Shown here: positions 39,857 to 55,547 of the stretch, in pieces
Layout: each line of letters begins with the position of its first letter
Numbering within the stretch: position 1 is the stretch's first letter
Source: a virus
Length of the DNA: 64,000 nt
Virus record (IMG/VR): IMGVR_UViG_3300030329_006380
Coordinates: 72,484-136,483 of that record
Reading direction: 5' to 3' (one strand)
Position numbers and translations under genes: made by a program
Notes under the pieces: model-generated
Databases searched by the model: none
What the model saw: the letters and a program-made list of their open reading frames with translations, nothing else
Told to the model about the DNA's origin: nothing

Positions 39857-40042
39857 TTAATTATATTGTTCCCCTTCATCAATGTCAAATTTAACTTTAG
39901 GAGGGTTAGTTACAACTATCTCACTATTCTCATCAATTTCTAATTCAAATCCTTTAAGGGTGCGGGTTACATCTGAGCGCTCCAGTATTGCTTTCTGTAA
40001 TGCTAGCATAACTGCTCCCAGTGCTTGATCTGATAATTTCAT
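39857..40042 (-). CDS. Small hypothetical protein
   Basis: ATG 40042 after SD AAGGAG, with an ATGA overlap to the epimerase stop. Begins MKLSDQALGAVMLALQK. Confidence 0.5.
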   Translation of the reverse strand: MKLSDQALGAVMLALQKAILERSDVTRTLKGFELEIDENSEIVVTNPPKVKFDIDEGEQYN

Positions 40043-40896
40043 TCTCTCTCCTTTAATTTTTGAAAACAAGAGTTTATCCCCTGTTCAATATTTATTTTTG
40101 TTTTCCATCCCAACGACTCTAGAGGAGCAATATCTGCTCTGGTCTCCCTTACGTCTCCACTCCTCTCTGATATGCGCGAGAACGTCACATTTGGAAAATA
40201 TTTATTAACAATCGACGCTACCTCATTTAGAGATATATTACTACCAGTTGCTGTATCATAGTGGCGACCTTTGAAATTGCCCTTGTAATTCATACAGAAA
40301 ATATTAGCAGATACAACATCAGAAACATGAATCATATCTCGGCGCTGATCTCCGGCGCCAGTAATATATGGATCTTTCCCCTTTCGAATGTAATCCATAA
40401 AATTAGCAATTGCCGTTGCATATGGACCATCGACCTCCTGATCCTCTGAGTATACATTAAAGTAACGAAGAGATACTGTATCTAAGCCATAAACATCAGA
40501 ATAGTTTTTACATAAAATCTCTGGTATTAATTTTGATGCGCCATATGGGCTGGTTGGCCCATCTCCATTGCCAACTACAGATGAAGAACTAGAGTAAATC
40601 ACCCTCTTGGCACCATTCTTTCTGGCGTATTCCAGAATTCGAATTGTGGAAAGAACGTTGTTCTCTAAGACCTCCTCGGGAAATTCCATGCTATATGGAA
40701 CTCGTGGAATCGCCGCAAGGTGAAAAATGTACTCTGGTCTGAAGCACTTATATCTTTTGTGATTTAAGTCATGAATTATATCCAGCCCATCTTTTAAATC
40801 AATACCTCGAACAACGCAACCCATCTTCTTCAAGGCTTTGTAAACACGAGATCCAATATATCCTCTATATCCTGTTACTAAACATCTAATAGCCAT
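40039..40896 (-). CDS. NAD-dependent nucleotide-sugar epimerase/dehydratase
   Basis: LVTGYRGYIG Rossmann motif, YSSSSSV, SPYGASK (YxxxK), SLRYFNVY. Probable start 40896 (ORF track 40917). Confidence 0.9.
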   Translation of the reverse strand: MAIRCLVTGYRGYIGSRVYKALKKMGCVVRGIDLKDGLDIIHDLNHKRYKCFRPEYIFHLAAIPRVPYSMEFPEEVLENNVLSTIRILEYARKNGAKRVIYSSSSSVVGNGDGPTSPYGASKLIPEILCKNYSDVYGLDTVSLRYFNVYSEDQEVDGPYATAIANFMDYIRKGKDPYITGAGDQRRDMIHVSDVVSANIFCMNYKGNFKGRHYDTATGSNISLNEVASIVNKYFPNVTFSRISERSGDVRETRADIAPLESLGWKTKINIEQGINSCFQKLKERE

Positions 40897-40907
40897 ATAG
40901 TCACAAT

Positions 40908-41522
40908 TTATATCCATTTGAAGTTAATATTTTTTAAGTTCTCCTCTTGAACGCGGCGCTTAATCTCTTCTGTGGCCGGCCTCAAGGATGGAATCTTTTT
41001 CTCGTGGGTCTCAACAAAGACATAGGGGATATCATGCAAAGCCCCATTATCCAATAAATGCTCTAGGAGATCACACTCAGCACCCTCGATATCTATTTTT
41101 AAGACCTGTATATTCTTTTTAAATTTATTCTTAATTTTCTGAATTATTCGATTGAGATCAATCGTTTTGACTTCTACATAATCATCAATGTTAACGTTGC
41201 TCTTCTCACTCACCAAGGAACTCCCAGTAGAATATTTTAAAGGATCTTCTGGTGATTTCTGGTGCATATATAACTTTGAAACTCCGTCACTAGAAGAAAC
41301 TGCCGCTTTAAAACACCTTACATTGCGATTATTCTTAAATCGATTAGACAATACATCAAAAGCTCTATCATTCGGCTCATAAGCTAACACTATTGCTCCA
41401 TGATTTATAAATAAATTTGTAATATCGCCGATATTTGCACCACAATCAATAACAATATCGCCTGAGTTTATAATCACGTCAACGAGGCTATTATCTTTAA
41501 GCTTTACTTGCAACACACTCAT
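40908..41522 (-). CDS. FkbM-family methyltransferase
   Basis: VIDCGANIG, YEPN, LKIDIEGAECD. Confidence 0.85.
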   Translation of the reverse strand: MSVLQVKLKDNSLVDVIINSGDIVIDCGANIGDITNLFINHGAIVLAYEPNDRAFDVLSNRFKNNRNVRCFKAAVSSSDGVSKLYMHQKSPEDPLKYSTGSSLVSEKSNVNIDDYVEVKTIDLNRIIQKIKNKFKKNIQVLKIDIEGAECDLLEHLLDNGALHDIPYVFVETHEKKIPSLRPATEEIKRRVQEENLKNINFKWI

Positions 41523-42412
41523 TGTTTCTCCCGCGATATCATCATACTTCTGGCTATTTTTTTAGTATACCCGTTGAGCCATGGCTCTAAGTTTTCTCTA
41601 CAGGTTATAGCTATAGCATCTTCGTTTTTAATATTTTCATAAATGCCACGATTGAATCCATCTGTCTGGACGATATGGGTTGGTTTATACCCCAGTTTTG
41701 CAAAGAGTTCAGGTTGTGGTCTGGGCGTTGCAACAATGTAGCTACACCTAAAACCGATATCAAAATATTTTCTCAAAATATTTTCAAAATCATTGTTTTC
41801 TGAATATTCTGACGGGTGGATTTCCAAAAGTATGTGAGTTTCCCCCATATTTTTTTTAAAATATTCATACCCTCCGTTAAAGACTGACACCTCGTGACCC
41901 TCAATATCCATTTTTATGAAATTGGGGTATCTTCTATTTTGAAAAAATGTTTCTAGTGTGAAGCATTCAACTGTCTCTTCCCTCACACTGTGTTTGGTTT
42001 TATTAATACTGTTTAAGTTTGGCTGTCGTGCAATCCAAAAAGATGATTCCCCATCATGGTCGGATATTAAACACTTATTAAGCTCGCAACGATCTGGTGT
42101 TAGATATCCATTTTTTTTAATATTTGTTTTTAAAAATTTCAAATTATGGGCGTCAGGCTCAATGGCGTAAACAAAGCCAGAAAACCCACTATTCCTGAGC
42201 ATGATCATTGTAGCGTAGCCTATATTGGCGCCCAGATCTAAACATGTCATACCAGGCTTGACCGTCTTATTCATGATAGCCATAAAGGCGCACTCTCGTG
42301 AAAAAGAAAAACCTTTGCCATCAGTGTGCGAATAATACAGAGTGCTTCCAATACCGCCATCATTAATGTCTAGAATCCATTTAAAATCATCAACTTCTTT
42401 TCTATATAACAT
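41519..42412 (-). CDS. FkbM-family methyltransferase
   Basis: CLDLGANIGY, AIEPD, FIKMDIEGHE. Probable start 42412 (ORF track 42424). Confidence 0.85.
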   Translation of the reverse strand: MLYRKEVDDFKWILDINDGGIGSTLYYSHTDGKGFSFSRECAFMAIMNKTVKPGMTCLDLGANIGYATMIMLRNSGFSGFVYAIEPDAHNLKFLKTNIKKNGYLTPDRCELNKCLISDHDGESSFWIARQPNLNSINKTKHSVREETVECFTLETFFQNRRYPNFIKMDIEGHEVSVFNGGYEYFKKNMGETHILLEIHPSEYSENNDFENILRKYFDIGFRCSYIVATPRPQPELFAKLGYKPTHIVQTDGFNRGIYENIKNEDAIAITCRENLEPWLNGYTKKIARSMMISREKQ

Positions 42413-43544
42413 CACTACCCCCACTAGAATCTATCACACAATAATTAATATTCTCTTGTTCCAGTGCATAAAAAAGATTCTGATATGAAAAAGGATAATT
42501 GTCTAAATGTTGATTTATTGAGTTCCCTCTCTTATTCTTTACTCGATTCAAAAGTCTCTCTCGATGAATATACGGCTTTACGTAGCATATAATCGCAGTT
42601 GCATCTTTATCCCGCAGTATCCTTACCCACTCATTAATGTTCGGCTTAAACCCACTAAGCGATTTGTAATTCGGAGCAATATATATCACAGGATAGTCAT
42701 CTGTAAACGTTGTTATATTTTTCCCATATTTTAGCGATCTCCCCTCACCATCAAAAACCTTGTTTTTAATGATATTCTCCCCCTTGTATTCTACTGGTAT
42801 ATTATAAAAATCATGCAAGAGCCTCGTTTTCCCAGAAGCGCCGGGACCAATTACAATCCCCCTCTTAAGATTTCGAACCGATTCTAAATCACTAAAAAAT
42901 ATTTTTCTTTTTTGAAAAATGCAAACATATCTCTCTGGGCCCATAAAGCTTTCTTGATTATCACTAGCCTGTTTAATTAACAAGTCATAATTTCTCTCCC
43001 GAAGAAAGGAGATTATATCCTGTAGGTTTAGATTTCCTTCAAACTTAACTTCCTTACCTATATCTCTCTCGTAGGCGTCATAGAATCCAAATAATGGAGC
43101 TTCTATGCAGATCATATCATTCGATAGTTCTGCTACTAAGTCCAATATCTTGTAAGGAGTCTGTACGTGATGTAAAATATTTAATAAGAATATACAATCA
43201 TATGATTCTTTCGTTTCACTTAAAAATGGTTCAAGTTTAGATAATATAAAATTTATATTATCGATATTATTTTTTTCAGCAATATCGATTCCAATATTTA
43301 ATTTTTTATCATCGATATCAACCGCGGTACCTTTTAATATTTTATCTTGTATATTAAACAAAATTGCGCCGGCGGCGGTACCCAAATCTAAAACACTTTT
43401 ATTATTAAAATAATCACCACCAAACATATCAATAATATAATTAGGTGTTCTATTTTTGTCGCCATCTTTCCCCATATAAACCCTGTCACCTATCTGTATA
43501 TGTCTATAGGTTTTTTGTGGGTATGCTATATTCTTTTTACCCAT
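42402..43544 (-). CDS. Class I SAM methyltransferase fused to a P-loop domain
   Basis: VLDLGTAAG...YDCIFLLNILHH in the N-half; IVIGPGASGKT Walker A in the C-half. Confidence 0.7.
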   Translation of the reverse strand: MGKKNIAYPQKTYRHIQIGDRVYMGKDGDKNRTPNYIIDMFGGDYFNNKSVLDLGTAAGAILFNIQDKILKGTAVDIDDKKLNIGIDIAEKNNIDNINFILSKLEPFLSETKESYDCIFLLNILHHVQTPYKILDLVAELSNDMICIEAPLFGFYDAYERDIGKEVKFEGNLNLQDIISFLRERNYDLLIKQASDNQESFMGPERYVCIFQKRKIFFSDLESVRNLKRGIVIGPGASGKTRLLHDFYNIPVEYKGENIIKNKVFDGEGRSLKYGKNITTFTDDYPVIYIAPNYKSLSGFKPNINEWVRILRDKDATAIICYVKPYIHRERLLNRVKNKRGNSINQHLDNYPFSYQNLFYALEQENINYCVIDSSGGSDVI

Positions 43545-44418
43545 CGTTCACCCCATTTTGTTTTTTTATAAATTCTTCTAAATCAATAACATCTTTTGAG
43601 TATTTTTCATTAGCAAATTTCTTCCATAAATTTATTCTATGATTTAAATTTTTTCGTTGTGAATCTGTAAGCATGTATATTCCATTGTTGATAAAATTGT
43701 GATATCTATTTTCCTTTTCAGTCTTTGTAATGATTGTATTTTGCACTCCCTTGAAGTGCTGTATACACGTTCCATCAAACCAATCAGATTTTGGATTTGA
43801 TCTGTTCAGATAATCACAATGTATTGCCAAAAATCTTATACCTCTTTCATCAAATTTGAAATAGTCATCCCTAGAAGAGGACAACACACTATTAACAAAT
43901 TTAGAGTCTCTATTTATTAAATTTATAAAAGTATACTGGTCATTTTGATTCCTTTTTATATCAGCAATCATATTAGATTCATAATCTTCAAAAAATTTAA
44001 GAGCTTTTTCATTTCTCCTGACAAGCATAACTCCACTGTTAATCCACTGTGGAAGACTATGCCTCCAAGTAAAAATAAAGTCTGCGGCGTTCTCCTCCGC
44101 CATTTTTATAAAGCTATCAATATTTTTCAACAAAGCAGTATCGTTATCCATAAACAAAACCCATTCACTATCTGCTTCTTTAAAACCCTGATTCCAGCAA
44201 ATAATTTTTAAACTCCCAGGTGAAATTCTAACAAATCCTATTTCATCTCTAAGCTTATTAATTCTATCTTCATCTGTTGGAGTGTCTTTTCCAACAACAT
44301 TGATTTTCATTTCTGGATAAATAGCCTTTACACTATTTTTTAATGATCCGACATAAGGATCACAGCAAGTTCCGAATGAACTTGCTACAACTGATATTTT
44401 ATCTTTTGTTATTGCCAT
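43537..44418 (-). CDS. GT-A fold glycosyltransferase (nucleotide-diphospho-sugar transferase-like)
   Basis: WVLFMDND (DxD), INSGVMLV, NDQ. Start 44418 after SD GGAG (ORF track 44496). Confidence 0.7.
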   Translation of the reverse strand: MAITKDKISVVASSFGTCCDPYVGSLKNSVKAIYPEMKINVVGKDTPTDEDRINKLRDEIGFVRISPGSLKIICWNQGFKEADSEWVLFMDNDTALLKNIDSFIKMAEENAADFIFTWRHSLPQWINSGVMLVRRNEKALKFFEDYESNMIADIKRNQNDQYTFINLINRDSKFVNSVLSSSRDDYFKFDERGIRFLAIHCDYLNRSNPKSDWFDGTCIQHFKGVQNTIITKTEKENRYHNFINNGIYMLTDSQRKNLNHRINLWKKFANEKYSKDVIDLEEFIKKQNGVNDG

Positions 44419-44419
44419 A

Positions 44420-45016
44420 TTATTTTCTCCAGTTATTATTTTTGTTAAGGTATTCATTTGGATTATAAGACTTAATCGGTGTTTTCCAGTCGCCATAATA
44501 AAATGTCAAATATTCTTCTGCGGGACCAGGAAGAATAAAATCTCTGCCCCTGAAATTAAATTTCTCGCCATTGTTATAATATTTATTAGGGAATTTCTGT
44601 TGTAAGTCACATCGATATCCCATGCCATTATCATAAAGAGCACTAGTTGCAATTTTGATGCCGTGTTTAAAAAATGCCATTTTGCTAGTTTTTCCCCTGA
44701 ATGTGGCGCGGGTGATGAATCCATGACTAATAAACGTCTCCTTAATTTCTTCAAAACGTGGTACATAAACCTCAGAAAAAATCTCAATATCAATTTCATC
44801 ATCCCATGAGATAAAATCCCCATCGCGATAAAACCCTAAAGCGGTACCGCAAGACAAAAAATATTTTATTCCCAATTCTCTAAAGATATCATCAACCTCT
44901 AAAAGTGCTAACGATGCTGCTTCCCTATCCATACCTTTGTTGGGTACATGATAATTGTGCCTCACTTTTCGCCATTCCTCAGTTGATAAAAGACTTATTA
45001 TTTCATTTTGTTTCAT
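44420..45016 (-). CDS. licD: LicD-family phosphotransferase
   Basis: YFLSCGTALGFYRDGDFISWDDEIDI is the LicD/fukutin motif; FYYGDWKTP tail. Confidence 0.85.
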   Translation of the reverse strand: MKQNEIISLLSTEEWRKVRHNYHVPNKGMDREAASLALLEVDDIFRELGIKYFLSCGTALGFYRDGDFISWDDEIDIEIFSEVYVPRFEEIKETFISHGFITRATFRGKTSKMAFFKHGIKIATSALYDNGMGYRCDLQQKFPNKYYNNGEKFNFRGRDFILPGPAEEYLTFYYGDWKTPIKSYNPNEYLNKNNNWRK

Positions 45017-45603
45017 ATATACAGACTCCTGTTAAAGTAATTTTCTTTCGACGGAGTATTCCAATCTTTACCATATGTATGTTCTACATATCCCAGTACA
45101 TCAGGAGCCTGGAAATTCATATTTTTAAAAATTATATTTTGACCTCTCTCGTATAAACTGGCTGGCCATTTGTACCTATACCTATAGCGTATTTTTTTGA
45201 CCGGATTTAAATAAAGGGCAGCGATGCCGACTTTTTCACCAGAATGATAAGCATTAATCTTCATATTGGGGTACTCTCTAATCCCCCTAGTGATATATCC
45301 TAAGTGAGTTAATTTGTTTTTTATAGTATCAAATTTAGGTATCAATTGTTCTGCAAAGACGTCCATATCTACATCGGGATCCCACTGGATGAAGTCGCCT
45401 TCTCTTAGATAACCCAATAGAGTGCCGCCGGAAAGAAACAAATCTACACCTTCCTCTGATAATATTTTTTTAAAATTTGCCATTATTTCCATTCTTGCGT
45501 TGAAATTGTAATTTGGAAACGAATTCAAGAGCGCATCTTTGTTCTTCTTTTTATATCTAATCCACTCCGAATGTGACATACTGCTAATCTCAATATTATT
45601 CAT
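45013..45603 (-). CDS. licD: LicD-family phosphotransferase (tandem paralog)
   Basis: LFLSGGTLLGYLREGDFIQWDPDVDM; TYGKDWNTP tail. Confidence 0.85.
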   Translation of the reverse strand: MNNIEISSMSHSEWIRYKKKNKDALLNSFPNYNFNARMEIMANFKKILSEEGVDLFLSGGTLLGYLREGDFIQWDPDVDMDVFAEQLIPKFDTIKNKLTHLGYITRGIREYPNMKINAYHSGEKVGIAALYLNPVKKIRYRYRYKWPASLYERGQNIIFKNMNFQAPDVLGYVEHTYGKDWNTPSKENYFNRSLYI

Positions 45604-46003
45604 AATCCTCTTTTATTCTCTCAATGATAGCGGTCGTAGAGACATGCTTAGTTCTAGGTACATATTTCATAATACCCATTTTTATTGGTACTGCCTGCTG
45701 TCTTAGGAGTTCGGGCGTGATATCATCGCCCCTAACAACATAGTCAATTTTGTTCTCCCCTAAGAACTGTTCGGTCATGATAAGAGGTGCTGCCTCTATT
45801 ACTTCATCGACATATCTACAAGCGCGGACCAATTCATATCTCTGTGACTCATTGATGATAGGTACTCTTTTATAACTAGCAATATCAGCATCTGAGTGGA
45901 CACCAACAATCAAATAGTCTCCTTGTTCGCGCGCCCTCTTAATCAGATTTAAGTGACCCAAGTGGAATAAATCTGCTGCCATATCAGTGTATATACGTAT
46001 CAT
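45596..46003 (-). CDS. Cytidylyltransferase (TagD/ethanolamine-phosphate CT-like), probable AEP-activating enzyme
   Basis: DLFHLGHLN (HxGH), LIVGVHSD, YKRVPI, RYVDEVI, VSTTAII. Confidence 0.85.
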   Translation of the reverse strand: MIRIYTDMAADLFHLGHLNLIKRAREQGDYLIVGVHSDADIASYKRVPIINESQRYELVRACRYVDEVIEAAPLIMTEQFLGENKIDYVVRGDDITPELLRQQAVPIKMGIMKYVPRTKHVSTTAIIERIKEDYE

Positions 46004-46004
46004 C

Positions 46005-46988
46005 TTATACTGTGTCCTTAAAGGCTTTAACTATTTTTTTAAATTTGATATCAAAATCCACGCTCATTGTCGCGACTCTGAAGCTACGGTCTACGCCATC
46101 AACACCCGAGTAAATAACAATCTTGCGACTCAATAGAAAATCATGTAATTTTTTGTATCCCATTCTAGGATGTTTAAATGCAATTATTGAATTCGCCGGA
46201 TTAGAATTAATACACTCGATTCCGATAGATGACATAGCGGATATTAATTTTTCTCTTCGAAGGTTAAATATTTTTTCATTTTCCAAGCTTTGGTCAACAG
46301 TATATTCTAAAGCATATACCGATTGTGTTGGCAGCGTAAAAGGCAAATGACCCAATTGATACTTCGAAAGATTTCCATAATAAGATCGATCAAAAATCTG
46401 CATCTCTTTATTCCACAACACTATTCCTAAGCCCGGAGTTGACTGTAGGCACTTGTTACTACAAAAAGACAATGCCGCTATCCTATGACCAAGTTTTTTA
46501 TAGTCGGAGGCGCCAAAAGCAGAGGTGGCATCAATAATAAATTTAGCCTCTGGGTAGATCTTGCACATCTTCTCTAGAGAATAATGCTCCCCTGTAGAAG
46601 TCTCATTTTCAACATAATAAACATACTTAACATCTCTATTTTCAACCAAATCATCAACTATTCTAGAGTTGACCTGCGCGCACTGAATGTTATATGTTTT
46701 GAAAATTTCCATTGCACGTTGACCATACTTGCCGGCGTTGACAACAAGCGTATCATTTGGTGCCAGTGAAGATATCATGGCTTCCATTGCCGCTGTTCCG
46801 GATCCACAAAGAATTGCGATTCGGCCGGCCGATGAAAATTTTACAGCACTTAAAAGTTTCTCCTGTAGTGATCTGAGTACTGCCTTGAAGGTGTCTTCTC
46901 TATGACAAATATCACTGCCCAGCCACTGCTTTATTTTAGTCAGAAACCTAGTATTTGTAGGTCCGGGATTCAATAGGATATCAGACAT
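46005..46988 (-). CDS. aepZ: 2-aminoethylphosphonate transaminase (class V PLP, PhnW/AepZ-like)
   Basis: LLNPGP, CHRE, GSGTAAME, YGQR, ENETSTG, IDATSAFG, SNKC (PLP lysine). Adjacent to the ppd and pepM genes. Confidence 0.8.
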   Translation of the reverse strand: MSDILLNPGPTNTRFLTKIKQWLGSDICHREDTFKAVLRSLQEKLLSAVKFSSAGRIAILCGSGTAAMEAMISSLAPNDTLVVNAGKYGQRAMEIFKTYNIQCAQVNSRIVDDLVENRDVKYVYYVENETSTGEHYSLEKMCKIYPEAKFIIDATSAFGASDYKKLGHRIAALSFCSNKCLQSTPGLGIVLWNKEMQIFDRSYYGNLSKYQLGHLPFTLPTQSVYALEYTVDQSLENEKIFNLRREKLISAMSSIGIECINSNPANSIIAFKHPRMGYKKLHDFLLSRKIVIYSGVDGVDRSFRVATMSVDFDIKFKKIVKAFKDTV

Positions 46989-47445
46989 TCAAAAAACTCC
47001 GGAGATTCTCAATATTCTCTTTACATGAGAGGCCAACACGAGGAGTTTTACCATCATTGGAAATTTTTATAATCTCGTTAACGCCAACATAATTAAGCTC
47101 CAAGTCAGAGCATTTATACTCGCCAACTGACTCGTGGCAACCATTATCCAGTACGTAAATATATAGATTACCGAGGGCCTCATCCCTAATGGTATGGGTA
47201 ATCCCCAGATGCATAAGAAGTGATGCATCACCCACAAATACTACAACATCTTTATCAATATTCCTTGCAGCCCCCAGCCCTATTGCCGGTGAAAGACCCA
47301 TACTGCCTTGCATATAAAGAATATTTTTATTATCCGGGTATATATTATATATTGCGCGGGACAAATACCCAGTATTCGTAATATATAAAGAATTCTCTCC
47401 GTGTCTTTCAAAAATATTTTTTATCGCTTCCTCTCTACTTAGCAT
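46981..47445 (-). CDS. ppd: Phosphonopyruvate decarboxylase, C-terminal (TPP-binding) subunit
   Basis: YMQGSMG, VGDASLLMHLG...LDNGCHESVG TPP motif. Probable ATG 47445. Confidence 0.8.
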   Translation of the reverse strand: MLSREEAIKNIFERHGENSLYITNTGYLSRAIYNIYPDNKNILYMQGSMGLSPAIGLGAARNIDKDVVVFVGDASLLMHLGITHTIRDEALGNLYIYVLDNGCHESVGEYKCSDLELNYVGVNEIIKISNDGKTPRVGLSCKENIENLRSFLNV

Positions 47446-47830
47446 TATTTTCACCACATATCAAAATATAATTTGAGTAACCAATTAAATCCAAGATCTT
47501 TTGATCAACCTCCCCCATCACTTTGTGTTGAGGAAGCGTGTGTCTGTGTCCAATTATCAACAATGGTTCAATACCAAAGGGGATACACAAACTAGTCAAG
47601 GGATTAATACAATTTCCCAGTCCAGAATTCTGTAAATATACACATGGTTTCTTGCCGGCTAGGGCTGCGCCGAAAGCTATAGCTACCGCCTGCGATTCAT
47701 GTACCGCTATTATATTTGGCACACCAGATGCAAGGATATCATTTTGGAAATTCTTTAAAGCACTGTCCGGAACACCGGTGAAAAAATCGTATCCCTGTTT
47801 AGATAATCTTGAATAGAGGTCATGATCCAT
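47435..47830 (-). CDS. ppd: Phosphonopyruvate decarboxylase, N-terminal subunit
   Basis: FFTGVPDSALK, HESQAVAIAFG, YLQNSGLGNCINPLTSL, PQHKVMG are classic Ppd/ComD motifs. Confidence 0.85.
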   Translation of the reverse strand: MDHDLYSRLSKQGYDFFTGVPDSALKNFQNDILASGVPNIIAVHESQAVAIAFGAALAGKKPCVYLQNSGLGNCINPLTSLCIPFGIEPLLIIGHRHTLPQHKVMGEVDQKILDLIGYSNYILICGENNAK

Positions 47831-48686
47831 ATTTATCCTGATTCTCCTTCATTTCATCCACAGCAATCAAATCAAAGATGGTTGTCATGGGAACCACAAA
47901 ATCATTTCCGGCAGAAAGAGTACCCTCTTTAATAATAGTCGTAAACATAGATTCTAGAGTGTTAACTGTAGCCCTGACGGAGTAATTAGCATAGATTGCC
48001 AAGCTTACACCACAGTTCCTCATCTGTTCCGTTGTCATCTGGTTGTATGTGGTGGGAACAATAACCAAAGGCGTTGTCAACCCCTCTTTGTGATATCGAT
48101 CGCAAAATTTTAAAACTTCATCCGGTGTCTTATTCTTGTTGTGGATCAGGAAGCCGTCGCAACCAGCATCAGTATATGCCTTTGCTCTCTCGATGGCGAC
48201 GTCAATGCCTCTGTTTTGTATGAGAGCCTCTGTACGTGCAATCACCGCGAAACCTTCCTTGTTATTCTTCTCCAAGGCCGCTTTAATCTTTCCAACTGTC
48301 GTAGGTGTTTTTTCAAGTACTTTCTTCATACCATAAAAAGAACATCTCTTAGGCGAAGGGTTATCCTCGATGCACATCGCCCATGCACCAGCCTTAGAAT
48401 ATTCACGTGCCATCCGGATAGTGTTGATAGCACTTGGACCACCTTCATCTGCGTCAACTAAAATAGGTATATTCACTCGATCTGCAATCTTGCTAATCGC
48501 GTCTGCATAGTCAGCTACATTCAAAATTGATGCATCTGGGAATCTGTTCCATGCGTGCATCTCAAAACTAGAAAGCCAAATCGCGTCAAATCCTGCATTT
48601 TCGGCCAACTTTGCTATCATTGCATTACTTGCACCGCAAGCCAAACTTAATTTTTCATCTCTCAATAAATCTTTTATGGTTCTCAT
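47820..48686 (-). CDS. pepM: Phosphoenolpyruvate mutase (ICL/PEPM superfamily)
   Basis: AKLAENAGFDAIWLSS, PILVDADEG, CIEDNPSPKRCSFY, IARTEALI, LVIVPTTY. The Ppd/AEP-transaminase/CT context supports PepM although the EDKxxxxxNS motif is variant. Confidence 0.75.
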   Translation of the reverse strand: MRTIKDLLRDEKLSLACGASNAMIAKLAENAGFDAIWLSSFEMHAWNRFPDASILNVADYADAISKIADRVNIPILVDADEGGPSAINTIRMAREYSKAGAWAMCIEDNPSPKRCSFYGMKKVLEKTPTTVGKIKAALEKNNKEGFAVIARTEALIQNRGIDVAIERAKAYTDAGCDGFLIHNKNKTPDEVLKFCDRYHKEGLTTPLVIVPTTYNQMTTEQMRNCGVSLAIYANYSVRATVNTLESMFTTIIKEGTLSAGNDFVVPMTTIFDLIAVDEMKENQDKYGS

Positions 48687-48696
48687 ATCACTTCCC

Positions 48697-49587
48697 TTAT
48701 TCCGTGACGAAGTTTAAATACTCTTTTGCTACGTTATGCATATTATAGCAAGAATCATAGGAATTGTCAAGTTTATTATTAAAGTTCAAGACCTTGGGGG
48801 AATATAAATCTATTGGTGAAAAATCCCATTCCTCTTCTTCAATAATAATTGCATTAGGGCCTGCTATTTCCTTGGTCCCTCCGGAGGATGAACATATCAC
48901 CCTGCACCCGCACGCGCGGGCGTCGACAACAACATTTGGACAATGATCTAGCCATGCCAAGTGAATAAAATACTTTGAAGCTTTGTAGATTGAAATTAAC
49001 TGCCTCTGATTTAAGTGGCCCAAGTATTTAATTCTAGGATGTTTAATCGGTTCTTCGTTAGTTGAACCAGCAACCAAAAGACAATCTCTTGCGCCCGAAT
49101 GCTCTAAAAAATATCTTATATTTTCTGATAATCTTTTGTGAGGGCGCCACGATGAAGCGCATACCCAAATATTATCATAATTCTGCGAGAACTCATCAAT
49201 AGGAGAAACCTGATCAATTAATTCTAAATCTGCGCCATTGTGAATGACCCTGTAGTTCTTGTGTGGGCCAAACCACCTAAAAATAAGATCTTTGTTGAAA
49301 GTGGACTGAAATATTACCCCACTAGAATGTCTGTATGTTCGAAGAATATTACTATTCTTTATATCATAATTCTCTTGTGTATTAAAATAAATGCCATCTA
49401 ATCTCTGAAAAGTGGGCATAGAATTAATGTTTTTACGATGGGACTCGATAAAACATAGGCTGATATCGGAGATTCTTAGGTCGGTAACCTCACACCCCAA
49501 GATATTGAATTGATTTTTTAATTTTTGAGCAAATGAATTCGGGCCGCTGTTGCTACCCAAGTTAACATTTTCTAGGCATATTTTCAT
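48697..49587 (-). CDS. GT4-like (GT-B) glycosyltransferase
   Basis: QRLDG, VIHNGAD, YLGHL, WLDHCPNVVVDARACG, GGTKEI. Confidence 0.8.
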   Translation of the reverse strand: MKICLENVNLGSNSGPNSFAQKLKNQFNILGCEVTDLRISDISLCFIESHRKNINSMPTFQRLDGIYFNTQENYDIKNSNILRTYRHSSGVIFQSTFNKDLIFRWFGPHKNYRVIHNGADLELIDQVSPIDEFSQNYDNIWVCASSWRPHKRLSENIRYFLEHSGARDCLLVAGSTNEEPIKHPRIKYLGHLNQRQLISIYKASKYFIHLAWLDHCPNVVVDARACGCRVICSSSGGTKEIAGPNAIIIEEEEWDFSPIDLYSPKVLNFNNKLDNSYDSCYNMHNVAKEYLNFVTE

Positions 49588-51230
49588 AAAGACTTTAATC
49601 TCTCATATTGAGACTTCTTTCTTATCTGTGCTTCGATTCGTAACTGATCTCTCCGTTGCACCCGATCAACAGAAAGAGGATTTAGGCGATTGTAAGTATA
49701 TACAATCTGATCGATCGATTTATAGTGTGTTTGGCCGGCCATCTCTAACATAGGATACATCAAGGCTCGATCAAAAGTACATTGGTAAAATTTACCATCT
49801 TCATCTTTTAAATCTGATTTGTCAATCTTATCAAAAAGTTTTTTTCGAAAAGTTCTAAGGTGGGAAAAAACATTTGGGTGACCCGAACCATCGTAATATT
49901 TTCTTAAGTTACCATTCCACATTGCATCATCAGAGTTAGCCGATTTAACTACCCGACATGTCGTTGATTCTATGTATGTTCCTGCGGTAATCCATGTCTC
50001 CTTATCATATTCCTCATTAAGCCTAGCTAACACATTAAAACTAGATAACCAGTCATCGCCATCGAGCAACACTATAATTGAGTCATCACGGACTTGCTTT
50101 ATAGCATTGTTAATATTATACAGAGCCTTGTAATTCTTCTTATTCCTTATAATATTTAAACGATCTTCTTTGTCATAAAGATCTTTTATCTCAGAAACCA
50201 AATCATATGTGGCATCCTCTGAATCATCGTCGATGTAAATAATATTAAAATTACCATATTTTTGGTTTAGTGCAGATAAAACATTTTTTTCAACCCATGG
50301 GGCGCAATTATATGCAGGTATAATAATCGTAAAATGGTTTTTCTCTAATAAGTTATTGCCTATAGGAGTGTCAATGCTGGATATCTCTTCTATCTTTTTC
50401 CAGAATGTTAGCGGTCTAGATGATAGATACTCTTCTATCTCCCTCGTTGACGTTGAACTAAACCATGTCTCATCTTTATGTTGAACATGGTCATTTATAA
50501 TCAATTCCTTCCCTAATAATTTAGCCTCTATTACCATTCTAGGGCAAGTATCTGATCCAATTGGCAAAAAAAGCAACCCCCTGCATGCTTGCATTTTTTT
50601 TAAAAACTCTTTATGAGGTAGATCCCCAACTAATTCATACTCTAGATTATTTTCTATCGCATACTCAATCGCTTCTCTAACCCCCTTGATTTTTGAACTG
50701 GAATTCATTATAAGCCATTTATTAGTATGACCCTTCTTCTCTTTCAAAAGAGAAATATATTTCAAAGTGTCTAAAGAGAAAATAGAACTGAGTACATAAC
50801 TCTCTTTGTTCTTCAAGAAGGGAAATTTACTATGATATTTATCTCTCTGTCCCTGTGACATCCACCACAATGATTTTGCACCCTTGAAAAAGATAGATAT
50901 TAGTTTACCATGTGATTCTTTGTGGCATTCGCATTTCCCCTCGGCCATTTCATGCAACTCTTCACATCGAAATTTACAAAATTTATAATCGTATTCAATC
51001 ACTGAATATTCTAAATTTTTATATGCGTGCAAAAGAAGCGATGTATCTAAATTATAAAAATTTCCAAAAACCCAGTGATAATCCTTATAAGAATGCATAT
51101 GCTTTTTGGTACAATGATGTGAGTGGAGTTTAATAACTGGGAGCGGGCATTTCTCTATCAACGCCTCAGAAGTTAATTCTGCTCCACCTGCATGATCTTC
51201 TTTGAAGAAGTCCGAGACAAATACAATCAT
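49584..51230 (-). CDS. Bifunctional GT-B plus GT2 glycosyltransferase
   Basis: N-half DTCPRMVIEAKLLG; C-half FTIIIPAYN, YIDDDSED, LLDGDDWL. Start 51230 after GAGG (ORF track 51254). Confidence 0.8.
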   Translation of the reverse strand: MIVFVSDFFKEDHAGGAELTSEALIEKCPLPVIKLHSHHCTKKHMHSYKDYHWVFGNFYNLDTSLLLHAYKNLEYSVIEYDYKFCKFRCEELHEMAEGKCECHKESHGKLISIFFKGAKSLWWMSQGQRDKYHSKFPFLKNKESYVLSSIFSLDTLKYISLLKEKKGHTNKWLIMNSSSKIKGVREAIEYAIENNLEYELVGDLPHKEFLKKMQACRGLLFLPIGSDTCPRMVIEAKLLGKELIINDHVQHKDETWFSSTSTREIEEYLSSRPLTFWKKIEEISSIDTPIGNNLLEKNHFTIIIPAYNCAPWVEKNVLSALNQKYGNFNIIYIDDDSEDATYDLVSEIKDLYDKEDRLNIIRNKKNYKALYNINNAIKQVRDDSIIVLLDGDDWLSSFNVLARLNEEYDKETWITAGTYIESTTCRVVKSANSDDAMWNGNLRKYYDGSGHPNVFSHLRTFRKKLFDKIDKSDLKDEDGKFYQCTFDRALMYPMLEMAGQTHYKSIDQIVYTYNRLNPLSVDRVQRRDQLRIEAQIRKKSQYERLKSL

Positions 51231-51231
51231 C

Positions 51232-52503
51232 TTATACCTCTGAGAGTTCTGCAAATAGCTTGTCTATCTCTTCATCCCTCTCTAGCTGATCACCCATGAT
51301 AGCTTCGACCATCTTCTTGTTGATCTTTTGCACCTCAAAGGCCTCTAGAGTATAATCCTTTAGTTTCTCAGCCTGCTTCTCATACATCCCCAAATTTTTA
51401 TATACATCGCGCATTTTCATCTTTGCGCTGCCCTCCCTAGGATAACACCACATTGAACCCTTCTCTAGGACACCCTTCCAAACTGCTTTTTTAGGTATTG
51501 GTTTAATATCATAAGACACGCTGGCGAAGAAGGGGCGCTTCTTCTTTTTCCCATTCTTCTTAACAGTGTCCATAAAGAGGAAATCATTTTGACCGCTCCA
51601 CTCGGTAGTCACCACAGGTAAGCCATGATACACTGCCTCAAAAATCGGCAACCCATAACCCTCGCCATGACTTAAAGATATTAAAGCTTTGATTTTTTCA
51701 TGATTATATAGATATGACATTTGACCCTCTGAAAGGGAGCCATGAAGTAGATGTACCTTGCACTTTCTCTTGCTATATTCTTCATTCGCCAATAAATTTT
51801 TAATCTTTTCTCTAAAGTGGTAATAATCCATCAAAGAATTGCTTGCAATATTACATTTAAGCACTAATCCCACCTCTTGATCGATAAATTCTTCAACAAA
51901 CCACTTAATAGTGTTCTCTAAGTTTTTACGAGGGGACCATTGGGCTACTACTAGAAAATTAAAATCATACTCCAGATCAATCGTCACCTCCTCTGGTTCA
52001 AAAAATCGCACTGGGTATCCAACGACCTCTATAGGGGTGTTGCATTTGAAATTAGGAATCGTCTGGCCGGTTTGAGGGTCTCTCGCTTCATAAGAAGTTG
52101 ATTCATAAACATTCTTTGCATGATTCGAAACAACTATAATCTTGTCCATGCCCATGGATTTCTCAATCCACTGTGGAGCGACTTTTGTTGTCTCGATGCC
52201 CGCGGTGTATCCAATATTAATTGGTGCTAGGCGCTCCCATTCGTTAGGTATTGTCACTTGAAGAGATATATCGAAATGCTTTGAATTCTGCATGTACACA
52301 GCCGTTTTCTGAATTAAGTGATCAATCCATTGTCTCTCTTCAGTGTCTCTCCATTGCCAACTGGTGCGGCCCCAATTTAAAGTATGTACATATATATCAA
52401 AAATCTCTTCATGTTCTCGGAGGGCCCGCAAAGCAAATCTGGCCTGCTCACCATACCCACTCTGACTTAATATGGGTCCTCTCACTAATATCTTTTTTCT
52501 CAC
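51232..52503 (-). CDS. GT4-family glycosyltransferase
   Basis: SQSGYG, YTAGIET, RKNLE, SHGEGYGLPIFEA...PVVTTEWSG. Confidence 0.85.
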   Translation of the reverse strand: MRKKILVRGPILSQSGYGEQARFALRALREHEEIFDIYVHTLNWGRTSWQWRDTEERQWIDHLIQKTAVYMQNSKHFDISLQVTIPNEWERLAPINIGYTAGIETTKVAPQWIEKSMGMDKIIVVSNHAKNVYESTSYEARDPQTGQTIPNFKCNTPIEVVGYPVRFFEPEEVTIDLEYDFNFLVVAQWSPRKNLENTIKWFVEEFIDQEVGLVLKCNIASNSLMDYYHFREKIKNLLANEEYSKRKCKVHLLHGSLSEGQMSYLYNHEKIKALISLSHGEGYGLPIFEAVYHGLPVVTTEWSGQNDFLFMDTVKKNGKKKKRPFFASVSYDIKPIPKKAVWKGVLEKGSMWCYPREGSAKMKMRDVYKNLGMYEKQAEKLKDYTLEAFEVQKINKKMVEAIMGDQLERDEEIDKLFAELSEV

Positions 52504-52511
52504 AGTATCTC

Positions 52512-53774
52512 CTATAATGTTGTGTAGCGATATGATTTATAATTTTCCCTAGAGTCCCAAGAACCATGGGTTTCATGTACTCGAATCAAAAGATTCTCCC
52601 AAGATTTTGCATACTTATCATATCCATATTCACGGAGCACATGTTGTCTTCCCTTTTCCCCCATTTCTTCGCGCTGTTCCTTCGTCATATTGAAGAAATC
52701 AAGCAATGCGTCAATAAAATCTTCCTTGTTGAGGCGATCTTCGTAAATCCATGGAACTTCTTGCGATCCTATCACAGCTTTCGAGCTAGGTTCGAGGCCT
52801 ATCCCATACCACTCTTTACCATTCGTAACTTGTTGCTGTAATCCGCCGGTCATATTCACTATAATGGGTGTACCAGCAAAAAGAGATTCCAGTGTGGATA
52901 ACCCAAACCCCTCAGCATCAGCAATATTAATTGTACAATCAGCAGCATTATAAATCATATTTAATGCTGCTGGTGGAAGTTTTTCCATGGATAATAAAAC
53001 TTGCCCTTTGTTCATCCCTAATTCATGAATTATCGCATGTAAAGATTGACCATGCTGGTCATTGGGATCAGTGTGCATTAAGAGCATTGCTTTATCATGG
53101 CCAACTTTGTCTAAAAATTCTTTAAACCAAAATATCAAAGTTCCAGACTGCTTTCGCCTAGCATTTCTATTGTTCCAGAAAAACACTAGTTTATCCTCTC
53201 CCTTTCCATGGAAAAAATTTTCTTTTCGAAATTCTTGTATCTCTTCTTTCGAAAGTTTTTTGAATTCTTGGTCATTGGCCGTATGAGGTATATATTCAAC
53301 ATCAACAGAGGGCGACACATTTCGTACAATATCGTCTGTGACTTTAGATATCGTCACTACCATATCATTTGATTCATAAAATGGCGCATTAAATTTAGGA
53401 TATGGGTAGTTATCCCATACATGATAATAAACCATAGGGCATAATGGCCGTATCTCATCTGAGATTTCCCATAGCCATGCCCAAAATCGAGGATCTGTCA
53501 TAAACCACAACATATCCGGACGATGAATTCGGAGCATCGATCGAACCAGATCTGCGTTCCCATATCCATCAACTGGGTGGATTAATAGATCATCTCCCCA
53601 TTTATCTGTTTTTTGTGGTGAATAATTCTCATGTTTCATTGCCCCCGCAATGCACACAAAGGAAAACTTACCGGTACCCAATAAGTGTTCAATCATATAT
53701 CTCGTCTGAGTTCCCACTCCAGAGGGGGCAAACGGGTGGTCACTCAACACAAGTACCTTAATTTTTTTGGACAT
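52512..53774 (-). CDS. GT4-family glycosyltransferase
   Basis: SGVGTQ, NRNARRKQ, EGFGLSTLESLFAGTPIIVNMTGG. Confidence 0.85.
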   Translation of the reverse strand: MSKKIKVLVLSDHPFAPSGVGTQTRYMIEHLLGTGKFSFVCIAGAMKHENYSPQKTDKWGDDLLIHPVDGYGNADLVRSMLRIHRPDMLWFMTDPRFWAWLWEISDEIRPLCPMVYYHVWDNYPYPKFNAPFYESNDMVVTISKVTDDIVRNVSPSVDVEYIPHTANDQEFKKLSKEEIQEFRKENFFHGKGEDKLVFFWNNRNARRKQSGTLIFWFKEFLDKVGHDKAMLLMHTDPNDQHGQSLHAIIHELGMNKGQVLLSMEKLPPAALNMIYNAADCTINIADAEGFGLSTLESLFAGTPIIVNMTGGLQQQVTNGKEWYGIGLEPSSKAVIGSQEVPWIYEDRLNKEDFIDALLDFFNMTKEQREEMGEKGRQHVLREYGYDKYAKSWENLLIRVHETHGSWDSRENYKSYRYTTL

Positions 53775-53777
53775 GTT

Positions 53778-54545
53778 TCACCTAGGGCAGTGCGAGGTTC
53801 TATAAAACTCGCAATTTTCACACTTAAGTTTGTTTTTGATAAAATTTTTATTTTTTATATTATAGACTGCTTTCTTAACTTTGTCAAGAGAATTCTTAAC
53901 TCTCTTGGGTCCACTAGTAACCCGAAGAAACTCAACTTTATCTTTCTTGGCGGTCCTCTTAAGAAGAGCAAAATACGTTTCAATATCTTTCATATCTATA
54001 TTATATTTCTTAGCATAATAATTTTTATATAAAACAATCTGGTAGATGACCATAGGATCTGCCTTTTTTCGCGAGTCCCAGCCCCACGAACATGTCTTCC
54101 AATCGATTATATGATATTTCTGATCGGGTGTTCTGATTATTAAATCGATAAATCCCTTGAAGATATAATCTACATCTTCCATCTTCTCATACAACCTTTC
54201 CTCAACGCCAATAACCTCGAAGACACCAAAATGTTTCTTTAATTCCGGTATCGCTAATGAAACTAACGTGGTGCCCTGCTTCAAGAATTCAACAAACCGC
54301 TCCTCTTCAACCTCTTCTGGTATTTTGTTGATCTCTCGTAAAAAAGATTCACAAAAATAATCTTGCATATCCGCCTGTTTAATCTCCTTCAGGAGATTTT
54401 TTTCGCAAGATTCATGCAGAGCGGAACCAAATGCTGTAAATATATTCCCCTTGAAGGGTCTGAGGCCATCTAAATTTACTAATTTATGATAAAATGGACA
54501 GAAATCCCAATTTTTTAACTCAGAAAAAGATATATGTTTTTTCAT
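53778..54545 (-). CDS. PD-(D/E)XK Cas4/AddB-like exonuclease
   Basis: SFSELKNWDFCP, GSALH, GFIDLI, IIDWKT, Q..Y, and C-terminal CENCEF...HCP Fe-S ligands. Confidence 0.85.
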   Translation of the reverse strand: MKKHISFSELKNWDFCPFYHKLVNLDGLRPFKGNIFTAFGSALHESCEKNLLKEIKQADMQDYFCESFLREINKIPEEVEEERFVEFLKQGTTLVSLAIPELKKHFGVFEVIGVEERLYEKMEDVDYIFKGFIDLIIRTPDQKYHIIDWKTCSWGWDSRKKADPMVIYQIVLYKNYYAKKYNIDMKDIETYFALLKRTAKKDKVEFLRVTSGPKRVKNSLDKVKKAVYNIKNKNFIKNKLKCENCEFYRTSHCPR

Positions 54546-54859
54546 ACTTCCTCGGTGGAAGCGACCGTTGTTTTCTTTTTGCGGCTGCGAGTGGCCTTCT
54601 GTTTCACGGGAGGAGGTGATGGAGCTAGCTTCTTTAATCTACATTTAAACGCCTTAATTCTTATGTCCTCTCGATAATTTCCCATAGGTGCCAAATTTTC
54701 GACTTTAAGTACCTCTTTTATATTGTCGCGAATAAAACTTTCCACTTCGTGAGGGGTGGACTTTAAAGTGAGACCATCTACTGATTCCTTAGTGGGTAAC
54801 TCTAGTGTCACCTCCAGAAATTCAGTTCCGGAGCCCTCCTTTTTGATAATTTTAAGCAT
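54542..54859 (-). CDS. Hypothetical protein with a basic C-terminal tail
   Basis: 105 aa, overlapping start and stop with its neighbours. Confidence 0.45.
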   Translation of the reverse strand: MLKIIKKEGSGTEFLEVTLELPTKESVDGLTLKSTPHEVESFIRDNIKEVLKVENLAPMGNYREDIRIKAFKCRLKKLAPSPPPVKQKATRSRKKKTTVASTEEV

Positions 54860-55547
54860 TTCCTAATTTCTCCTCTAAAAATTTTATTTTTTTGTACAGT
54901 ACTGGACAAAGCAACTGTATATAGGGTCTCTCACCATATTTCGTAAAATACTCTTCAAAACCAACGGCGAAATATTCGCGAATTGACGTGACAGAATAAG
55001 GCCCAATAAACAATCCGGTAGTAAAATTTGTCAACTTTTCATATCCGATTTCTTTGTACAAAAGGTTATCAAAGTCTACGGAGTATTCCAACTCCATAAA
55101 CTCATCTGTTGGTATATTATATCCATGTGCAGTCAAAATGTCAAGTAATTTATTTCTTTTTCCTAAAAATTCTGCTCTTATGTAGCCATCTCCGTAAATT
55201 TCCTCTGAATATCGCTCCTCAATCATGTGAGCGATCTCATGAACAATATCATCAATAAGGTCAGCGTCACTATCTTGATCATTGGTGATATGGAGGGTAC
55301 CATTCTCATAAAAAGCGTTAACCTGTTTATTTTCGAACTCCTCGGAGTAACCAATAATTATAGACTCTAAGCCCAAAAAGAAATTATCCGGCAACATTTT
55401 CCGGATTTTTGTAAATATGTCAATAAAATCGATGCCCACAGGAAGGGGGTCTTTAATTTGGACTTGAACTTTTCCGCCCAATACGCTAAAACTCCCTGCG
55501 TTTCGCTTCATCCGCGAGGAAGAGTTAGCAATATATTCTCTAATCAT
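54852..55547 (-). CDS. Putative zincin metallopeptidase (HEXXH)
   Basis: IVHEIAHMIE plus a downstream REYFAVGFEEY (third-ligand E pattern). Confidence 0.55.
   Translation of the reverse strand: MIREYIANSSSRMKRNAGSFSVLGGKVQVQIKDPLPVGIDFIDIFTKIRKMLPDNFFLGLESIIIGYSEEFENKQVNAFYENGTLHITNDQDSDADLIDDIVHEIAHMIEERYSEEIYGDGYIRAEFLGKRNKLLDILTAHGYNIPTDEFMELEYSVDFDNLLYKEIGYEKLTNFTTGLFIGPYSVTSIREYFAVGFEEYFTKYGERPYIQLLCPVLYKKIKFLEEKLGNA

Follow-up and report, generated by a model that had tools for sequence, protein, structure and literature searches.

The closest described counterpart of the genes reported here is the bacterial phosphonyl-tailoring (Pnt) pathway of Treponema denticola, Atopobium rimae, and Olsenella uli, which combines Ppm, Ppd, and AEPT with PntC and LicD-like transferases (Rice et al., 2019, PMC6697681). 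Among viruses, a 2-aminoethylphosphonate (AEP) gene neighbourhood, GCF 881, has been described from a metagenome-assembled genome (MAG) of a giant virus (NCLDV), where the AEP core lies beside sugar-modifying genes and was read as a viral phosphonoglycan system (Li and Horsman, 2022, PMC8942020); 364 huge-phage genomes were also scanned, and no phage Ppm was left after the EDKX5NS motif filter (PMC8942020). We identified a cassette of seven genes for predicted phosphonate synthesis and transfer at 44420-48686 (minus strand) of a 64,000-nucleotide stretch of viral DNA (hereafter the window), which is the last 64 kb (bases 72484-136483) of IMG/VR viral record IMGVR_UViG_3300030329_006380 (136,483 bp and 62% complete according to CheckV, from which the full genome is ~220 kb by estimate). 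On its gene content and setting, the cassette probably represents a phage-encoded phosphonyl-tailoring pathway within a variable glycan-building island of a large marine myovirus.

All components of a Pnt gene set (Ppm, Ppd, AEPT, a nucleotidyltransferase, and LicD and glycan genes) are present in the window and contiguous. The seven open reading frames (ORFs) named in a preliminary description of this DNA, which was made without database searches, are present and intact; neighbouring ORFs overlap by 4-23 nt or sit 1 nt apart, and the genes are translationally coupled. They are predicted to encode, in order, a phosphoenolpyruvate (PEP) mutase homologue (288 aa; 47820-48686), whose gating-loop motif, EDNPSPKRCS, is non-canonical; a split phosphonopyruvate decarboxylase, consisting of an N-terminal (alpha) half (131 aa; 47435-47830; TPP_enzyme_N, 35 bits), whose gene is overlapped by the pepM-type gene by 11 nt, and a C-terminal (beta) half with a GTG start (158 aa; 46981-47457; TPP_enzyme_C, 37 bits); an AEP transaminase of the PhnW/AepZ type (327 aa; 46005-46988; a borderline Aminotran_5 match); a cytidylyltransferase of the TagD/CCT/ECT type (135 aa; 45596-46003), whose gene lies 1 nt past that of the transaminase, an adjacency kept in all relatives that reach that far; and two paralogous LicD-family phosphotransferases (196 aa, 45013-45603, PF04991 35 bits; and 198 aa, 44420-45016, PF04991 46.6 bits). 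The remaining Pfam matches are PEP_mutase, CTP_transf_like, and LicD (twice), and the top NCBIfam families are TIGR02320 (PepM), TIGR03297 (both Ppd halves), and TIGR03301 (transaminase); together with matches in the Protein Data Bank (PDB), these bear out the preliminary gene assignments at the level of families.

From these genes we infer a set of enzymatic activities, above all a mutase activity with an EDN-x5-CS loop, and the nature of an acceptor. The PepM homologue would rearrange host PEP to phosphonopyruvate; the two-subunit thiamine diphosphate (ThDP) decarboxylase would convert this to phosphonoacetaldehyde, drawing the unfavourable mutase equilibrium forward; the class-V transaminase would convert phosphonoacetaldehyde to AEP; the TagD/ECT-type cytidylyltransferase would turn AEP into its cytidine monophosphate (CMP) derivative, CMP-AEP; and the two LicD/FKRP-fold phosphotransferases would move the AEP head group onto hydroxyls of a glycan, which the soluble glycosyl- and methyltransferases encoded on either side would build and O-methylate.

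For the mutase homologue, TIGR02320 is the top-scoring model (230.6 bits, compared with 177.6 bits for the phosphonopyruvate hydrolase model and 158.9 bits for the methylisocitrate lyase, PrpB, model), and the best PDB match is PEP mutase 5unc (E 1e-58); its match to PF13714 (142.4 bits; cut-off 31.5) is unspecific alone, this model matching 11 of 14 control genomes. The equivalents of D58, D85, D87, E114, K120, S123, R159, and H190 (Mytilus numbering) are kept, and in the phmmer alignment with 1m1b the Mg and substrate residues D58, D85, D87, E114, R159, and H190, whose roles are summarised in PMC7916636, correspond to D51, D78, D80, E107, R151, and H182. The Ppd alpha half scores 104.5 bits on TIGR03297 (profile positions 1-122) versus 70 bits on sulfopyruvate decarboxylase alpha, and the beta half, with a ThDP-type motif (GDAS...LDNG) at residue 76, scores 87.6 bits over profile positions 170-291. 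For the transaminase, TIGR03301 is the best model (165 bits), and the top five solved relatives are all AEP transaminases, namely the T. denticola nucleotidyltransferase/aminotransferase 6pd1 and four PhnW structures (best matches including 9kk8, 1m32, and 7e7g); its SNK lysine, which binds pyridoxal phosphate, and the preceding Asp align with these relatives. The cytidylyltransferase matches PF01467 at 82 bits (cut-off 21) and carries the motifs HLGH, RYVDEVI, and RTKHVSTT, the TagD/CCT/ECT signature; PF01467 is the second family listed as fused to Ppm, and PF01467 enzymes such as Fom1 and PhpF act on phosphonates (PMC6697681). The LicD paralogues are 36% identical to each other, and both pass the PF04991 gathering cut-off. 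The first carries the motif GTLLGYLREGDFIQWDPDVD; the centres read WDDEID and WDPDVD, and the GTxLGxxRxGDFIxWDxDxD centre is common to FKRP, the motif of the second paralogue (LicD2) aligning to FKRP residues 292-331. An AlphaFold model of LicD2 (pLDDT 90.4) has as its top Foldseek matches the FKRP catalytic domain with CMP or cytidine diphosphate (CDP)-ribitol (E 7e-9; TM-score 0.63 normalised to the query). There are 28 marine clusters in the LicD2 family; several are on contigs whose lengths equal those of PepM-bearing contigs (for example, 97,317 bp) and which are presumably the same contigs.

The contig belongs to a tailed phage (Caudoviricetes, myovirus-type). PHROG matches in the window include a baseplate wedge protein, a gp55-like late sigma factor, endolysin-type peptidoglycan hydrolases, and PhoH, and those in the rest of the contig include the major head protein, portal, large terminase, tail sheath, DNA polymerase, DnaB, ribonucleotide reductase (RNR), GroEL, and SbcC, with nearly all genes on one strand; the viral setting that had been read from baseplate and sigma factor genes is upheld by the capsid, portal, terminase, and sheath genes outside the window. 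Its cultured relatives are distant: the closest ones of the baseplate protein (Flavobacterium phage immuto and Microcystis phage Mel-JY01) are only ~29% identical, as is a 484-kb uncultured phage. Against 50,697 phage records, blastn with the 4.3-kb cassette gave no match, and tblastn with PepM gave only six weak matches (26-34% identity), none of them a close cultured relative.

A survey of viral databases for pepM clusters, as proposed in the preliminary description, identified 16 pepM loci on 15 IMG/VR contigs, 11 of the contigs being of the EDN..CS type. The core PepM-PpdA-PpdB-AEPT-CT (CT, cytidylyltransferase) is in fixed order in every related locus that reaches far enough downstream (the 11 IMG/VR contigs and several ENA assemblies, on two phage backbones). 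The shared gene order runs from PhoH through a PD-(D/E)XK nuclease, GT4, GT4, GT2, and (GT4) to pepM, ppdA, ppdB, the transaminase, and the cytidylyltransferase, followed by variable tailoring genes and the sigma factor; the island slot between PhoH/PD-(D/E)XK and the late sigma factor is the same in loci L002, L014, and L015. The EDN..CS contigs and ENA assemblies form one PepM clade (99% in the Shimodaira-Hasegawa-like approximate likelihood ratio test, SH-aLRT), with two subclades on different backbones: the first is syntenic with the window, and the second contains a DEAD helicase, peptide deformylase, an Apyc1-like gene, AAA_24, and DUF669. In L005, which is on the second backbone, an Apyc1-like (anti-Pycsar) gene of the metallo-beta-lactamase fold (5089-5847) is located a few kb upstream of pepM, as are the peptide deformylase gene and a gene for a CCA-adding-type nucleotidyltransferase. 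Overall, the phage PepM lineage contains >120 distinct protein clusters at 90% identity in Tara, JGI, ENA, and Logan data.

Another four IMG/VR contigs contain a canonical EDK..NS PepM and form a separate viral clade; they account for five loci (L026-L030), of which L026 and L028 may each derive from one contig region. Ppd is present in L027-L030, and cytidylyltransferase and LicD homologues in L027, L029, and L030; the PepM domain of L028 lies within an 806-aa ORF. In addition, the cultured 128-kb Vibrio phage Va2 (L111; MW073017.1, 104837-110942) has an annotated PEP mutase of 434 aa and an annotated ThDP-binding protein of 366 aa, which flank RNR genes; the 12.6-kb stretch has no annotated transaminase, cytidylyltransferase, or LicD, and Va2 may make a different phage phosphonate product. 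Predicted phosphonate genes are thus recurrent in phages, rather than a singleton.

The loop of the mutase homologue is fixed among its relatives: all 120 nearest homologue clusters (66-100% identity, from the marine metagenomes of Tara, JGI, ENA, and Logan) carry [IVF]EDNP[SCT]PKRCSF, one of them as EDNTSPKRCSF. Among the best 150 representatives at 50% identity, 93 are EDK..NS and 19 EDN..CS, and there are intermediates (EDN..NS, EDN..HS, and EDS..CS); some EDN..CS metagenome representatives are fused to an NTP_transf_3 (PntC-type) or ThDP domain, the same fusion partners as reported for canonical Ppm (PMC6697681). Three more EDN..CS proteins, at 34-49% identity, each adjoin Ppd genes, and the coupling of pepM to Ppd is kept in all phage relatives that reach far enough. 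At least 585 cellular genomes match EDN-type patterns in a scan of one genome per prokaryotic species; the best 80 cellular loci are EDN..KRC[ST] without exception, and 57 of them have a recognisable Ppd within 6 kb. In two trees the EDN..CS sequences form a basal grade in which the canonical EDK..NS clade is nested (backbone SH-aLRT 83-96 in the first tree and 87-94 in the second), a provisional result, as these are quick maximum-likelihood trees rooted on only two EDQ..KRC[GA] lyase-like sequences.

The nearest cellular PepMs come from Acidimicrobiales, Solirubrobacterales, and Frankiales MAGs; because they are only 48-54% identical and form a sister clade of the phage PepMs, the phage pepM, as judged from its sequence, is an old viral lineage, not a recent pick-up from a host. 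The sister position of these Actinomycetota PepMs concerns the gene and is no evidence on the phage host. PepM is also the best-conserved protein of the region (75-88% amino acid identity, compared with 62-64% for PhoH in the same phage pairs), and its nonsynonymous divergence from relatives is low (dN 0.08-0.19; only dN was used, since synonymous divergence is saturated), the pattern of a protein under purifying selection.

Several observations weigh against the proposed pathway. The EDKx5NS motif is not found in the mutase homologue, whose translation reads E107-D108-N109-PSPKR-C115-S116; the alignment to 5unc, 1m1b, and phosphonopyruvate hydrolase 2dua gives Lys116 to Asn, Asn122 to Cys, and Leu124 to Phe. 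Asn122 and Ser123 lie on the mobile loop and are presumed phosphoryl contacts, and Asn122Thr is invoked by most authors for the difference between mutase and hydrolase (review, PMC7916636). In the hidden Markov model (HMM) searches suggested by the preliminary description, the PepM, Ppd, and PhnW models rank first and PF01467 and LicD match as expected, but with none of the pathway-specific models TIGR02320, TIGR03297, and TIGR03301 does the score reach the equivalog cut-off (319.55, 312.5 for the single-chain Ppd model, and 360.8, respectively). To our knowledge, no enzyme with an EDN..CS loop has been assayed. The Ppd beta half scores nearly equally on sulfopyruvate decarboxylase beta (85.7 versus 87.6 bits), the closest named equivalog of the cytidylyltransferase is glycerol-3-phosphate cytidylyltransferase (TagD; TIGR01518, 67 bits), and some close relatives (L014) have the core but, within the sequence covered, no LicD.

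The cassette is the centre of a 13.7-kb island of 16 genes (40039-53774, minus strand) that includes soluble glycosyl- and methyltransferases. On the upstream side of pepM, Pfam identified four glycosyltransferases at 48697-53774 (a GT4 of 296 aa, a GT2 of 556 aa, and two GT4s of 423 and 420 aa), which are syntenic in L002, L014, and L015; the ORF at 52512-53774 also has a PHROG glycosyltransferase match. On the other side of the cassette are genes for a GT-A-like nucleotide-diphospho-sugar transferase (319 aa; 43537-44496; PF03407 28 bits, PF00535 24.5 bits); a 380-aa fusion (42402-43544) of a class I S-adenosylmethionine (SAM) methyltransferase (Methyltransf_31 and related models, residues 48-142) and a C-terminal P-loop domain of small-kinase type; two FkbM-type methyltransferases (301 and 204 aa; 40908-42424; PF05050 63 and 59.5 bits); and an NAD-dependent sugar-nucleotide epimerase/dehydratase (292 aa; 40039-40917; PF01370 153 bits, GDP_Man_Dehyd 124 bits). 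The C-terminal half of the 380-aa fusion contains a GPGASGKT Walker A motif and has no Pfam match, but an Atlas lead (score 0.92) connects it to kinase clusters of the Zeta_toxin/AAA_33 type; the fusion could methylate and phosphorylate a sugar or head group, and a 428-aa homologue is kept in L002.

The tailoring genes round the core differ between close relatives: L002 (13786-18305) adds a B12-radical SAM enzyme and two sulfotransferases; L012 (13102-17024) adds a LicD, a GT11 fucosyltransferase-type enzyme, and a GDP-mannose dehydratase; L014 (8551-9990) has a small methyltransferase and a PhyH-type Fe/2-oxoglutarate dioxygenase directly before pepM; L005 has sugar-nucleotide genes (CTP_transf_3, DegT, and epimerases) round the core; and the groundwater contig L009 (10105-13667) contains a methyltransferase and an NTP_transf_3-phosphodiesterase-family fusion. 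This predicted repertoire suggests a diversified glycan and possibly a diversified head group (N-methyl or hydroxy-AEP).

For the acceptor, we lean tentatively towards the virion or another cytoplasmically assembled glycoconjugate (for example, a glycan on a virion protein), because no membrane (hydrophobic) segments were found in 22 island and flanking proteins, including all 16 island proteins, and because searches of the 136-kb contig for the Bac_transf, Glycos_transf_4, and Wzx families gave neither an initiating phosphoglycosyltransferase nor a flippase; the host envelope is a possible but less favoured acceptor, and any other acceptor seems improbable. The contig being ~62% complete, export genes could lie elsewhere, so their absence is weak evidence. 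Among the alternatives, the one that survives best, though it is still doubtful, is that the same chemistry acts on a precursor of the host envelope (undecaprenyl-linked O-antigen, capsule, or a teichoic-acid-type polymer), in which case host flippases would display the AEP-bearing methylated glycan and mask receptors against superinfecting phages or grazers. Lipid-linked intermediates at the cytoplasmic face are the classical substrates of LicD, GT2, and GT4 enzymes, and the variation of tailoring genes between close relatives is as in surface-antigen loci. Phosphonoglycoproteins have been proposed as armour against phages and grazers (Acker et al., 10.1101/2020.11.04.368217).

The promoters bear on this alternative as well. 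The window contains five perfect matches to TTGACA-N17-TATAAT versus 0.06 expected, all on the coding (minus) strand between 39.8 and 56.4 kb (39860-39888, 48742-48770, 53859-53887, 55116-55144, and 56387-56415), and none in the structural block below 38 kb. The match at 48742-48770 has a TG extension and lies 56 nt upstream of the pepM ATG, and that at 53859-53887 lies 85 nt upstream of the first glycosyltransferase gene of the island. This suggests that the region from 39.8 to 56.4 kb is transcribed by host sigma-70 RNA polymerase (early), in a host with classical -35/-10 promoters, in keeping with an envelope acceptor. The pepM promoter, however, is not kept: no counterpart of this perfect match was found upstream of pepM in 14 related loci. 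L002 and L014 have a strong sigma-70 match ~8.3-8.5 kb upstream of pepM, in L002 at the PhoH-equivalent position. Late transcription via the T4-type late promoter TATAAATA is unsupported, with 14 matches versus 7.7 expected and none on the coding strand in the island. Against the envelope as acceptor there are also the lack of any polymerase or membrane protein, besides the initiating enzyme and flippase, in the island or the 136-kb contig; the backbone, which resembles that of a lytic T4-like myovirus; and the 16-gene investment, which would need to match the export specificity of the host.

Returning to the pathway itself, an alternative that we consider unlikely is that the PepM-like enzyme is not a PEP mutase, its Cys loop serving another reaction; the cassette would then make a non-AEP head group, or the enzyme would be a relative of the hydrolase or lyase type. 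The PKRCS sequence is similar to KRCGH, the loop sequence of methylisocitrate and isocitrate lyases, and EDN..CS sequences are the nearest to the lyase-like root in our trees; the departure from the motif at two of its five residues, the hydrolase and lyase model scores, and the unspecific PF13714 match point in the same direction. The best HMM and PDB matches, however, are PEP mutases, and the association with Ppd, AEP transaminase, and cytidylyltransferase is tight and repeated in phages, as is that with Ppd in the cellular loci; the fusions of EDN..CS proteins to PntC-type and ThDP domains and the nesting of canonical PepM within the EDN..CS grade likewise argue for a mutase. Within the lyase-like branch, CPEP mutase is a carbon-phosphorus (C-P) mutase and is also said to have a Cys loop. 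A lyase or hydrolase would make no sense here, because the gene precedes those for a phosphonopyruvate-type decarboxylase, an AEP-type transaminase, and a cytidylyltransferase, and no known lyase or hydrolase product would feed such a decarboxylase and then be cytidylylated. The phage enzyme very likely has PEP mutase activity, a reading drawn from context and phylogeny and not from the motif, two of whose five residues are changed, among them the loop Asn held to distinguish mutase from hydrolase.

It is slightly less likely still that the cytidylyltransferase and LicD proteins install a conventional head group (glycerol-phosphate, ribitol-phosphate, or phosphoethanolamine), with AEP being a free metabolite, a DNA modification, or part of a phosphonolipid. 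CDP-glycerol is a possible product of the cytidylyltransferase, because its closest named equivalog is TagD; FKRP, the best match of the LicD model, uses CDP-ribitol; and both Vibrio phage Va2 and the groundwater contig L009 have pepM among nucleotide-metabolism genes. On the other hand, the cytidylyltransferase gene is in conserved adjacency to the transaminase gene, other PF01467 enzymes act on phosphonates, and no genes for the supply of glycerol-3-phosphate or ribitol-phosphate were seen in the island. DNA as the target was rejected, with no base-hypermodification gene in the contig (no thymidylate-synthase or dCMP-hydroxymethylase family) and nothing else pointing to DNA.

A cellular phosphonate island joined to phage DNA by misassembly, a concern raised in the preliminary description and one to which the metagenomic origin of the contig and the slightly lower GC content of the island (0.32-0.39, versus 0.40-0.45 in the structural block) might seem to point, is effectively refuted, because independent contigs from other samples keep the same gene order and junctions (PhoH, PD-(D/E)XK, and GT4 on one side; the sigma factor and lysis genes on the other), the island genes are all on one strand, an identical PepM protein is listed for 6 contigs, and the phage copies form their own clade, distant from the nearest cellular PepMs.

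Several other features of the contig were noted. Two ORFs of 2,912 and 2,964 aa (11550-20288 and 24012-32906, minus strand), which flank the baseplate-wedge gene, are probably giant fibre or baseplate-associated proteins; Pfam is almost blank on these and on two other large structural ORFs, with one sub-threshold Laminin_G_3/ConA-like match among the two and no clue to a glycan acceptor. A 231-aa ORF (54852-55547, minus strand) has a weak sub-threshold match to Pfam ATLF (zincin-like; E 0.0017, 18.5 bits versus 27.4) and is probably only a distant metalloprotease-like fold, if anything. Outside the window are a full-length GroEL-type chaperonin (PHROG 5725, 472 bits; G000:C1:10129-11733) and one tRNA-Arg(TCT) (27340-27413 of G000:C1).

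In the full-text literature, whose coverage leaves out most subscription journals, we found neither a tailed-phage phosphonoglycan pathway nor the EDN..CS variant described. The preliminary statement that no phage phosphonoglycan system has been characterised holds for tailed phages to that extent, but an AEP pathway has been predicted once for a virus, a giant-virus MAG (PMC8942020), and Va2 has an annotated PEP mutase. Marine organic phosphorus includes a major pool of phosphonates whose sources are poorly known, and phosphonate producers are counted via pepM with EDKx5NS: PepM was accepted only with this motif by Rice et al. (PMC6697681) and by Li and Horsman (PMC8942020), and Acker et al. 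(10.1101/2020.11.04.368217) required it with a narrow exception, up to two missing motif residues being allowed only with a nearby gene that passes TIGR03297. The split Ppd of the phage would presumably fail this rescue rule, because both halves score below the TIGR03297 cut-off. The loop variant of the phage lineage and of the 585 or more cellular genomes is one that EDKx5NS filters remove, and it is conceivable, though we regard it as doubtful, that the EDN-x5-CS enzymes constitute a large branch of mutases forming C-P bonds, overlooked so far and dropped by every motif-filtered pepM census. If the variant is active, infection would divert host PEP and scarce phosphorus into C-P compounds, the potential for phosphonate production would be underestimated, and the accepted catalytic signature of the PepM family would need revision, since Cys-loop ancestors appear to have given rise to canonical PepM; if it is inactive or otherwise active, it marks an unknown reaction tightly tied to Ppd. 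A phosphonate-bearing glycan on the virion or infected cell would be a new phage surface chemistry, resistant to phosphatases in phosphorus-starved water.

Comparison with known systems places the cassette as follows. The PEP mutases of Mytilus edulis (1m1b) and Streptomyces (5unc) and the phosphonopyruvate hydrolases (2dua and 2hjp) are of the same fold family as the phage enzyme and have Mg and substrate ligands in common with it; its gating loop, with Cys at the Asn122 position where the hydrolases have Thr and the lyases Cys-Gly-His, combines features of both groups. The phage decarboxylase is split like the sulfopyruvate decarboxylase ComDE, yet scores higher on the Ppd model. In the Lic pathway (LicC and LicD of Streptococcus pneumoniae and Haemophilus) and in FKRP/fukutin, as is predicted for the phage, a CDP- or CMP-activated head group is paired with a LicD-fold transferase with a DxD centre; the phage LicDs are minimal (~197 aa) and single-domain, without the stem domain of FKRP, and their presumed donor is CMP-AEP, compared with CDP-choline (Lic) or CDP-ribitol (FKRP). 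Chloroviruses, mimivirus (in its fibrils), and some mycobacteriophages have virus-encoded cytoplasmic glycosylation of the virion. These systems and the phage island (in the latter case, as genes only) share soluble glycosyltransferases, sugar-nucleotide enzymes, and FkbM methyltransferases without lipid-carrier or export machinery; we know of no phosphonate addition in any of them.

Among the phosphonate systems, giant-virus GCF 881 is unlike the phage cassette in belonging to a eukaryotic giant virus and in having a Ppm-Ppd fusion and the canonical motif. The cassettes of Actinomycetota MAGs (L031-L048; Acidimicrobiales, Solirubrobacterales, and Frankiales) have the same PepM-PpdA-PpdB-AEPT-CT(-LicD) order, a split Ppd, and the EDN..PKRCS loop, but are cellular and, going by their record titles, mostly from soil or freshwater, with the PepM divergence given above. 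The phage cassette differs from the Pnt pathway in its location in a tailed-phage genome, in having a stand-alone PF01467 enzyme and not the assayed PF12804 PntC, in its split Ppd, and in a mutase whose EDNx5CS loop falls outside the motif filter of Rice et al. (PMC6697681). The enzyme families and their logic are the same, and the best solved relative of the phage transaminase is the T. denticola PntC-AEPT fusion (6pd1); by its predicted functions, the phage cassette is a bacterial phosphonyl-tailoring pathway in a phage, with a split Ppd, a PF01467 enzyme, and a variant mutase loop.

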